Positions 5,757-35,327 of a stretch of DNA of 64,000 nucleotides are shown one piece after another. The stretch comes from a virus. The DNA lies in the IMG/VR virus record IMGVR_UViG_3300042516_003202; one strand, given 5' to 3'. The position numbers and the translations under genes were made by a program. A model generated the notes under the pieces. It made no database searches and was not told where the DNA came from. It saw only the letters and a program-made list of their open reading frames with translations. Within the stretch, counting starts at the first letter, position 1. Each line of letters starts with the position of its first letter.

Positions 5757-8700
5757 CTAACTTAATGCAATAATTAGAGGGGTTACTGTATTTAACAGAC
5801 TTTGACTGAATGATCTTCCAGTAATTGTTCCAGTTAATTGATTAATCACAACGCCATCGCCAATTTGGAAGTTTCCTGCCTGATTTGTGCTCGTATATAC
5901 AACTTGTCCACCATTACGCTTATCAACTTCATTTGCCTGAATTGTGACACCACCTAAAGCAGGTTTTGCTGTATTAATATTTGTTCCAGATCCAACCCAC
6001 TCTAATGAAATTGAAGTTGCAATTTGTAAACTCAATCTTGAGAAATAAACTGTTGTCCCAGCACCTACTGTATTATTTAGATTTTGAGTCAGAACCAATG
6101 TTGAAGTTCCATTAACTGGTAATGTTGCCGTTGTAATAGTATAATAAAGAGGATACAAAACTGCTTCTGCAGTTGCATTTACTCCAGATCCTCCAGGAAA
6201 ATCAGTAATTGTAACGCTTGGGGAATTTAAGTATTGACTTCCATTACTGATTACGTCTATTGAAGTTATAACACCATTTTCATCAACGTTGGCAGAAGCT
6301 TCTGCACGAATTCCGCTAGGACCTTCTGGGAATCCAATTGTTACGTTTGGTGGATTTGTGGGATTGTAACCATTTCCACCATTTGTAACTTTAATAGCAT
6401 TGACTTGATAGTACAATTCGCCAAAATAAATTGCCTGACCGTCATAAGGTCTTTGTGTCCCCAATCCAGAAATTGTAACAGTATCAGTTTCAATTTCTGC
6501 AGTTCCTACGGTTTCTCCAGTGTAACGATAAATTGATTTTGAAGTATAATCACCAACTCCATCGGAAACAAGACCATAATTACCAAACGAACAGTTTGAG
6601 TTTGTAATATCACACTGACCACCAGATTTTGTAAAGATTCCAATATCGTCGCAAATTGTAAAGATAGAAACCAATTGTGTATATGCACCATTTGTGATAG
6701 AAACACCAATACCATTTTGATTATATTGAGTATAAGAATCAACACTCATGGTTCCAGTTACACCAATATCTTCTTTATCACCAGGCTCTGCCGCAAATCC
6801 ATCCACTTTCATTCCGATACTATCACCAATAAAGTTAGTGCAGTTTCTTACATAAGGACCTTGAGTAATTGGACCAACTCCTTTGGAGTATGGTGGGATT
6901 ACAATTCCACCAACAACATAAGTATGACCTATTCCAGTTTTACCAACATTTACTGTAAATGTATTTCTTTCATTAGTTGTAGAAAGAACCTCAAATGCAT
7001 ATCCATTATTTCCAGATGGGAATAATGTAGTTGTAGCTGCTCCACTAGAACATGCAAATTCAAGATCCCGTAATGTTACGATATCACCAGTTCTTACTGA
7101 AATGCCAGGAGCAGTAATTGTAACAATACCAGTATTATTGTCATATTTTGCTTCAGTAACTTCTAATGAACGATTAACTACATAACCACCAGAAACATAA
7201 CTATGGGGAATAGTTGAAATTCCAGTATAAACATCAAAAGAGTCGTCTGAATTAATTTTAGTTACATAAAATTCATATCCATAATATCCAGATGGGAATA
7301 ATTGAGTTGAAACAGGTCCTCCAGAGGAGCATGAGAACTTAAGGTTTCTAACCTCAATTAAATCTCCAACCTTGACTAACAATCCTGGTGCTTTGATAGT
7401 AGTTTTTCCTGAAGTTTCTTCATAAAGAGCACTCGTAACACCGACAATAGAATCAAACCCTTTTCCTCTATTTCCTGGATATGTGGTATTAAATCCAACA
7501 TATGAGAATGCAGTTGATCCTATTCCTATAATTGAAGTAACAATTCCAACACAAACTTTCATCGCTGAAGTTACGTCAGCACATGAATTAATTACATTAT
7601 TAAATCCAGTTGCAGGATCAACTTGCATCGCAAGGTCTTTAATTTGAGTGAATTCATTCTGGAAATTGGTATATTTTTGAACTGTTCCACCAGAAACATA
7701 GGTGTGTGGAAGAACAGTTTTTCCACCAACAAACTCAAATGTATTTGGTCCAACTACCGATTTAACTGGGAAAATATAATTAAAAGTTCCATCTGGGAAA
7801 GTTGTGGTTGTATAGTTAGAAGTTAAAGTACCTCCATACATGTAACGATGATCTAATGTAGAAGTTCCTACATTTACCTTAACTTTATTTGAAACATAAA
7901 GTGCTGGGTAAGATCCTAGATTACCTGCAGATATAACTGTGGTTAGTATTGAAATTAAATTATCAATATTTGTTTTAACATCGGCGCAAGAATTTTCACT
8001 AGTATTAGATCCTGTAGCAGGATCTGCACTTATTGTTAAATCCTTAACATTTAGTTGATTTGTAATTGCTTTCTTAGCATAATCACGAACCGCATTAAAT
8101 GCAGTTACACTTTGCGTTTCTTCACCAACTAAACCATTAGAAATTGGTGCTCCATTCTTATTAAAATATGCTCTAGTTGCTTCACGAATGTGCTTATTAG
8201 TTCCATACTTAACATCCTTAACCAAAGCATCAACAATATATCCAATATCTCTACGACACTTATTTTCACCAGAAACAAATATTCCTGGATTGTTTCTAAT
8301 TGTATTAAGAGAAGTTAGTGAACCAGCAGAAACAACAGTTGTAATTAGAGAAGTTAAAGTGTCTAATGCACTTTGGACATTTGCACAAGATGATGATGAA
8401 GTATTAGATCCAGTTACAGGATCTGCAGTTAGTGTTAGATCTTTTGTGGTAAGTTGATTTGTAATTGCCTGCTTCATCAGGTTTCTTGCCTGATTAAAAG
8501 CATAAACAGATTCTGTTTCTTCACCAACTAAACCATTAGAAATTGGTGCTCCATTATTGAAATATTGTCTTACAAATGCAATAGAATAAGAATTTCCACC
8601 AGTAAATATGTCTGTAGAAACCGCATCAATAAAATATCCAAGATCTCTCTTACATTTGGTTTGCGTTCCGGAAATTCCAGGATATTGTGCAACTGTTGCC

Positions 8701-34825: not shown

Positions 34826-34909
34826 TTACCTATAAATCAACTGAATGAACAAAGATAATAGAGTGATAAACGTAACAGATGCAACAGTAATTTGTGCAAT
34901 AACCATCAT
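34826..34909 (-). CDS. 27-aa hydrophobic micropeptide (single TM helix)
   Basis: MMVIAQITVASVTFITLLSLFIQLIYR; TAATG overlap with the upstream ORF. Confidence 0.55.
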   Translation of the reverse strand: MMVIAQITVASVTFITLLSLFIQLIYR

Positions 34910-35007
34910 TACCTTGCTCCCGCATTTATAAGAAGTGCTTGATAACGTCTATCTTGTTTTTGCTTTTGTTCTTTAATAAGTTGAAGAAAATTGAGTTTTT
35001 TCATCAT
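34909..35007 (-). CDS. 32-aa basic micropeptide
   Basis: MMKKLNFLQLIKEQKQKQDRRYQALLINAGAR; ATGA overlap with the DUF4278 ORF; GGAGG Shine-Dalgarno upstream. Confidence 0.6.
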   Translation of the reverse strand: MMKKLNFLQLIKEQKQKQDRRYQALLINAGAR

Positions 35008-35171: not shown

Positions 35172-35268
35172 CCCCGTTCCTTCGGGCGGTTTGCGTTCGC
35201 TATTTGCGAATAGCGAATGAACGTCCCGTTCCGCCGTCCTACTTGCGTCTGGTTTCCCAGATGAACGT
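35172..35268 (-). ncRNA. Glutamine riboswitch-like RNA (glnA / Downstream-peptide family), apparently tandem or nested
   Basis: CGUUCA-UCUGG(GAAA)CCAGA-CGCAAGUAGGACGGC-GGAACGGG-A-CGUUCA-UUCGCUAUU(CGCA)AAUAGCGAA-CGCAA-ACCGCCCGAA-GGAACGGG; P1 CGUUC/GAACG and AGUA/GAA E-loop-like motifs; lies directly upstream of a DUF4278 gene. Confidence 0.75.
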
Positions 35269-35274
35269 AAGGTC

Positions 35275-35303
35275 ATTATAGACCCATTGCATTTATATAG
35301 CAA
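35275..35303 (-). promoter_or_regulatory. Sigma70-type promoter driving the riboswitch/DUF4278 unit
   Basis: TTGCTA-N17-TATAAT; predicted start site about 35268, at the first riboswitch nucleotide. Confidence 0.75.
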
Positions 35304-35311
35304 GTTTAAAC

Positions 35312-35327
35312 TGTAACATCTGTTACA
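35312..35327. promoter_or_regulatory. NtcA binding site
   Basis: TGTA-ACATCTGT-TACA is an exact GTA-N8-TAC, inside the longer palindrome AAACTGTAACA-TC-TGTTACAGTTT. Confidence 0.75.

Follow-up and report, generated by a model that had tools for sequence, protein, structure and literature searches.

A glutamine riboswitch doublet in a T4-like cyanophage that probably folds as a nested pair of cores upstream of a DUF4278 gene

Results

Identification of a glutamine riboswitch doublet

The 64,000-nucleotide stretch of viral DNA analysed here (the window) carries on its minus strand, from 35269 to 35171 (5' to 3'), a 99-nt RNA that is, by covariance-model assignment, a glutamine riboswitch. We consider it probable that this RNA is a glutamine-I (glnA-type) doublet whose stable fold is nested rather than serial and which leads the transcript of a DUF4278 (IF17-like) gene. 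The best DNA matches and the thyX-like and phoH-like neighbour genes assign the window to a T4-like cyanomyovirus (family Kyanoviridae) that is not identical to any deposited phage. A pattern search of the window (P1 5' strand, 10-30 nt, core pentamer, 10 nt, and P1 3' strand followed by GG) gave two matches, exact copies of the motif at 35267-35225 and 35223-35173 on the minus strand, compared with none in 100 dinucleotide-preserving shuffles. Both CGUUCA-hairpin-CGCAA-N10 copies described in a first-pass annotation of this DNA were thus recovered exactly, and every other piece that it had named is present as well (hairpins at 35261-35248 and 35217-35196, AGUA at 35243-35240 and GAA at 35183-35181). 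The parts of the element, in 5' to 3' order, are:

35267-35263, minus strand: a1, outer P1 5' strand CGUUC, placed by the RF01739 alignment and invariant in 44 of 44 aligned relatives
35261-35248, minus strand: hp1, hairpin of the outer aptamer, 5 bp with a GAAA loop, from covariation
35247-35240, minus strand: core1, conserved ligand-site strand plus AGUA (35243-35240, 5' half of the E-loop), placed by the RF01739 alignment
35239-35234, minus strand: S5', 5' strand of the shared long-range helix (P3 of the outer aptamer), covarying with 35184-35189
35231-35227, minus strand: b1, inner GAACG strand, whose partner is a2 in a nested fold and a1 in a tandem fold
between b1 and a2: linker of 3 nt (3-6 nt in the 110 relatives)
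35223-35219, minus strand: a2, inner CGUUC strand, with a b1:a2 hairpin predicted by RNAalifold
35217-35196, minus strand: hp2, hairpin of the inner core, 9 bp with a 4-nt loop, from covariation
35195-35191, minus strand: core2, second copy of the ligand-site strand, lacking the GUA of the E-loop
35189-35184, minus strand: S3', 3' strand of the shared long-range helix, from covariation
35183-35175, minus strand: GAA (35183-35181, 3' half of the E-loop), then G, then b2 (35179-35175, outer P1 3' strand), placed by the RF01739 alignment

The only Rfam family to reach its gathering score in the 64-kb window was the glutamine-I family, RF01739 (39.9 bits against 35; E = 3.5e-5 for the window), which matched 35269-35171 over model positions 1-53 in full and so upholds the earlier identification of a glutamine riboswitch. 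This match arises only when the element is read as nested, since the alignment pairs a1 with b2 and treats 52 nt, from just past the start of S5' to S3', as an insertion in P3. P1, formed by CGUUC (35267-35263) and GAACG (35179-35175), is supported by the model and by RNAalifold rather than by covariation. The hairpin of variable sequence corresponds to hp1, in which four of four counted pairs have changed on both sides and 99% of cells are paired. The E-loop and P3 are present, but only across both copies, and P3 covaries. The genomic context is the 5' leader of a DUF4278/IF17-type gene with a promoter-like site at 35303-35275. Glutamine-II (RF01704) scored 22 bits against a cut-off of 33, on copy 2 only and with its defining 3' hairpin mostly deleted in the alignment; a pseudoknot with such a hairpin is absent. 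The element therefore does not belong to that family as the Downstream-peptide-like tandem that had been proposed.

To place the element among its relatives, 110 distinct doublets were collected from two scans of viral (cyanophage) contigs, the second of which used the outer motifs alone and, because most of its matches were due to chance, was filtered by the core prefix. From these, 44 compact doublets were aligned with MAFFT. The same doublet occurs in Synechococcus phages S-PM2, S-CREM1, S-CAM7, S-H34, S-B68 and MA10. When bacterial genomes were scanned for the b1-a2 junction, the matches were random, with no riboswitch among the 120 matches listed.

A split E-loop and a covarying helix join the two copies

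In all 110 doublets the E-loop is divided, copy 1 carrying GUA without GAA and copy 2 GAA without GUA, indicating that only the nested fold can produce the canonical junction. Conservation of core1 extends to all 110 doublets, with C or G as its third base, and that of core2 likewise, as CGCAA in 96 and as close variants in 14. The helix connecting the copies (35239-35234 with 35189-35184) starts directly at the E-loop and has one A.C mismatch in the window, where GG-A-CGG lies opposite CCG-C-CC. Anchored at the E-loop in this way, S5' and S3' are complementary over 5 to 8 pairs in 29 distinct strand combinations across the 110 doublets. In the 44-sequence alignment the first pair of the helix is AU in 29 sequences, GC in 12 and GU in 2, and the last is GC in 13, UA in 9 and AU in 6, with no unpaired cell; at two internal positions a C.A or A.C mismatch is conserved, giving way to a Watson-Crick pair in a minority of the sequences. 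Over the whole structure, 94.3% of cells are paired in the 44 relatives compared with 83.6% in column shuffles, a level reached by none of 500 shuffles, and pairing falls to 31-56% when the partners are slid by one to three columns. For hp2, four of five counted pairs have changed on both sides, with 99.5% of cells paired.

Because its base pairs covary, we conclude that the helix joining the copies is real, and the nested glnA-like three-way junction with an E-loop and a long-range P3, suggested at first pass, is now backed by both the covariance model and covariation. Relatives do not conserve the register proposed then for P3, a 5-bp helix that used the first two G of the inner P1 3' strand. 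That register fits the window and is impossible in most of the other sequences, for which reason the E-loop-anchored register was adopted in its place.

The inner core is a circular permutation of the outer core

Traced along the nested fold, the chain passes from core1 into the shared helix at the outer junction, where the outgoing strand continues to b2; at the far end of the helix it passes in from core2, and the outgoing strand there continues to b1. The order a2-hp2-core2-shared helix-b1 therefore has the same connectivity as a1-hp1-core1-shared helix-b2, which makes the inner core a circular permutation of the outer one. The first-pass annotation had P3 enclosing a second hairpin; that hairpin is present, but the enclosed part amounts to a full second core in permuted form, which was overlooked. 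Two differences set the inner core apart: a 3-nt loop closes its P1 (b1:a2), and one-base linkers take the place of the E-loop. Since it is without an E-loop and the terminal pair on its ligand side is closed by only 3 nt, the inner core may bind no glutamine.

A scan that fixed only the outer motifs showed b1 to be kept in 39 of 40 genuine elements, and a2 and a consensus-type core2 in all 40. These three strands are near-invariant, while the hairpins and the shared helix vary freely. Retention of both cores matters because the ligand sits in the P1 (pseudoknot) helix beside the core strand (PMC6698751). S-PM2-type relatives use one and the same quasi-palindromic octamer for the two helix strands, an identity compatible with an inferred origin of the doublet by tandem duplication and subsequent strand exchange. 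A natural variant without b1 was also seen, in locus L146 (minus strand, about position 8265 of the reversed locus), where a2, hp2, core2 and the outer parts are kept.

Folding energies favour nested over tandem pairings

The P1 strands never vary, a1 being invariant wherever it was correctly parsed, so covariation cannot tell which a strand pairs with which b strand; a search of the relatives for P1 covariation separating a1:b2 from a1:b1 found none. RNAalifold, supplied with no structure, predicted a1:b2, hp1, b1:a2 and hp2. In a nearest-neighbour energy model that omits ligand, tertiary contacts and pseudoknots, the nested fold has an energy of -28.7 kcal/mol compared with -21.3 for the tandem fold. 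Mean helix probabilities in the 44 relatives under this model were 0.59 for a1:b2 and 0.64 for b1:a2, compared with 0.05 for a1:b1 and 0.04 for a2:b2; the corresponding values in the window were 0.33, 0.59, 0.06 and 0.00. The modelled energies thus favour the nested pairings, and the tandem fold would be a transient state at most. These improbable tandem helices, together with the subthreshold RF01704 score and the fact that no copy holds both halves of the E-loop, tell against the Downstream-peptide-like tandem of the first-pass annotation.

The transcription unit and its candidate expression platform

The features surrounding the aptamer are:

35377-35357: terminator-like site ending the upstream gene
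35303-35275, minus strand: candidate sigma-70-like promoter (-35 hexamer, 17-nt spacer, -10 hexamer), from a consensus scan with 10 of 12 matches
35174-35142, minus strand: candidate expression platform read from the sequence, consisting of a G-run, an A-rich stretch, a pyrimidine tract and the Shine-Dalgarno sequence GGAGG (35154-35150)
35141-35004, minus strand: controlled gene, 45 residues with two YRG motifs, DUF4278/IF17-like
34813-34791: terminator-like site ending the riboswitch unit

Transcription from the promoter-like site is predicted, from the pattern match, to start at about 35268, the first base of the aptamer, and promoter-like hexamers lie at an equal distance in related phage loci. 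A short palindrome (35271-35284, minus strand) flanks the -10 hexamer; its arms vary in related loci with complementarity kept, and it would suit an RNA hairpin if the true start lies upstream of the predicted one. Further upstream, a GTA-N8-TAC box of the NtcA type (35313-35326, minus strand) is centred about 51.5 nt before the predicted start, and similar boxes occur at the same place in many related loci. The canonical spacing at NtcA-activated promoters is -41.5, from which this box departs. Between the DUF4278 gene and the terminator-like site that follows it are two overlapping micro-ORFs of 32 and 27 codons (34826-35007, minus strand), neither of which has a Pfam or PHROG match.

The downstream protein scored 19.1 bits with Pfam DUF4278, under the cut-off of 25.3, and matched phrog_5049 with an E value of 1e-10, and 23 of 27 homologues encoded behind the same RNA matched DUF4278 (best E = 1.2e-7). 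DUF4278 is a domain of IF17, a glutamine synthetase inactivating factor, and both classes of glutamine riboswitch usually have DUF4278 genes as their targets, the two examples that have been tested being ON switches (PMC6212724). Given these targets and this mode of switching, control by the element is most likely translational and ON with glutamine, on the model of the gifB leader of the hosts and the Prochlorococcus leaders.

RNAalifold predicted no consensus pair in 50 tails extending from the 3' strand of the E-loop to the AUG. Locking the aptamer in the model changed mean accessibility of the Shine-Dalgarno sequence from 0.46 to 0.50 and that of the AUG from 0.47 to 0.55; 14 sequences opened and 7 closed, and the window was unchanged, with modelled Shine-Dalgarno accessibilities of 0.60 and 0.61 in the two aptamer states. 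The energy of a duplex between the b2 region and the tract preceding the Shine-Dalgarno sequence beats 90% of shuffles in only 38% of sequences, the window not among them. A small hairpin just 3' of b2 seemed, on inspection by eye, to covary.

Genes within the hairpins of related elements

The window holds the compact form of the doublet, with no gene within either hairpin. In 62 of 67 relatives that initially resembled single aptamers, hp2 is enlarged to enclose a complete gene of 50-65 codons (for example L004:1565-1795, L009:1266-1480 and L007:1532-1780). The AUG of this gene falls 2-5 nt past a2, on the 5' side of the closing stem; core2 and S3' encode its final codons, and its stop codon shares bases with the E-loop strand GAA. 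The copy in S-SSM4 is an annotated CDS with a full-length match to phrog_504 (E = 3e-25). Similarly, hp1 encloses a gene of 60-70 codons in about 25 loci (including L010, L013, L023, L046 and L077, about 200 nt upstream of core1), which has a hydrophobic N-terminus, starts in the stem just past a1 and stops in or adjoining core1. Some related loci have genes inside both hairpins. The compact hp2 of the window (35196-35217, minus strand) is near-identical in many otherwise diverged relatives and serves as hp1 in others; such conservation is unusual for a plain hairpin, and hp2 together with core2 creates a third GAACG.

Discussion

A nested doublet and its rivals

We propose that the outer aptamer would comprise a1:b2, hp1, core1, an E-loop assembled from the AGUA of copy 1 and the GAA of copy 2, and P3 (35239-35234/35189-35184), the far end of which would bear the permuted second core (b1:a2 with its 3-nt loop, hp2 and core2). 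Both cores are presumed to bind glutamine, and binding would stabilise closure of a1:b2, which in turn may alter access to the ribosome-binding site about 25 nt downstream and, as in the gifB and Prochlorococcus leaders, would switch translation on. The serial a1:b1 helix would occur only as a transient co-transcriptional state. A more elaborate version, to which we give rather less than even credence, is a domain-swapped, pseudo-symmetric pair of glutamine-binding aptamers sharing one helix, the outer one being pre-organised when the inner core is occupied. If so, the element would be a cooperative nitrogen sensor unlike any described riboswitch class, and in most relatives the scaffold would close a hairpin around a small gene, such that sensing and translation compete.

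The transient a1:b1 helix could have a larger part than the nested doublet assigns to it if the RNA toggled between two functional folds, a1:b1 sensing glutamine during transcription and a2, when no ligand is bound, capturing b1 to give the nested fold, with the route taken setting the output. Two competing folds of this kind, possibly acting as a cooperative or switch-like glutamine sensor, were suggested in the first-pass annotation. Such toggling is unlikely, though a1 and b1 are transcribed ahead of a2, the a1:b1-only and b1:a2 states differ by only about 1.3 kcal/mol, and in 62 of 67 relatives the start codon of the gene inside hp2 follows a2 by 2-5 nt, where pairing of a2 should matter. 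The equilibrium probability of a1:b1 is about 0.05, and because hp2 holds no gene in the window, an early decision would have no obvious output there. Somewhat less likely again is a lone glutamine-I aptamer whose P3 contains a large insertion, with the inner motifs a non-binding relic of tandem duplication that acts as a structural cap. Treatment of the inner part as an insertion by Rfam, the variable length of P3 across the family, the octamer shared by both helix strands in S-PM2-type relatives and the missing E-loop of the inner core all suit such a relic, but a relic should decay, and b1, a2 and core2 are near-invariant in 110 elements in which hairpins and helix vary.

A 'pseudo-cooperative' tandem, in which the copies would act independently as serial riboswitches, is very improbable. 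P1 strands, a hairpin and a core are present in each copy, and surveys count 157 glutamine doublets classed in this way (PMC9481103), but two complete riboswitches with platforms of their own are not what the element contains: the 3-nt gap between b1 and a2 is too short for an expression platform, each copy lacks both a complete E-loop and a P3 partner of its own, the helix between the copies covaries, the tandem helices are improbable and RF01704 stays under threshold. A single expression platform, as in a cooperative dual-aptamer riboswitch of the glycine type, is consistent with the sequence.

Comparison with known riboswitches

Glutamine-I riboswitches (RF01739) such as the Synechocystis gifB (IF17) leader (PMC6212724) have the same P1 strands, hairpin, core, AGUA/GAA E-loop and P3 and likewise lead DUF4278 genes, but here P3 is long-range and closed by a permuted second core of about 50 nt instead of a loop, and the halves of the E-loop come from different repeat copies. 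Glutamine-II (RF01704; PMC6698751) shares the ligand-site nucleotides and the DUF4278 targets and, like the inner core, is without an E-loop, but is defined by a pseudoknot with a 3' hairpin that is absent here. In tandem glutamine riboswitches (PMC2864571, PMC9481103), two glutamine-type cores also precede one gene; these are described as complete, independent and serial, whereas the cores here lie 3 nt apart and share one helix and one platform. The tandem glycine riboswitch likewise has two homologous amino-acid aptamers before one platform, which makes cooperativity conceivable, but its aptamers are serial and docked by tertiary contacts, whereas here one core sits inside a helix of the other. 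The closest counterpart is the S-CREM1 glnA riboswitch (OP535465, 164232-164330; PMC9964418), a homologous 99-nt doublet with the same order of parts and a homologous small gene downstream, but with a different sequence in the helix strands and platform; it was published as an Rfam hit only, its architecture unanalysed.

Tandem glnA RNAs have been noted since discovery of the motif (PMC2864571), and one survey lists 157 doublets and 4 triplets of glutamine riboswitches, classed as independent and 'pseudo-cooperative' (PMC9481103). The remark in the first-pass annotation that riboswitches are rarely reported in phages is fair in that phage riboswitches have been called rare, in a paper that lists two cyanophage glutamine aptamers (PMC5473149), but glutamine riboswitches of cyanophages, including that of S-CREM1, are already in print, later phage papers having added them as Rfam hits only (PMC9964418, PMC9004378). 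In the literature covered, which excludes Ames and Breaker 2011 and Ren et al. 2015, we found no account of helix sharing between copies, of a divided E-loop or of an inner core in permuted form. So far as that coverage goes, cyanophage glutamine riboswitches and tandem copies are known and the nested shared-helix layout would be new; published descriptions appear to misfile the nested arrangement as simple tandem, and standard family scans would under-annotate such elements.

Implications

Glutamine riboswitches are the RNA arm of cyanobacterial nitrogen control. If these doublets are each one interlocked two-core device, they would provide a natural case of aptamer circular permutation combined with helix sharing and could explain how a sharp response is obtained from a sensor of millimolar affinity. 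Marine cyanophages would then read the nitrogen status of their hosts with a sensor of their own, differently built, and would use it to time the expression of a putative glutamine-synthetase-inhibitor-like peptide.
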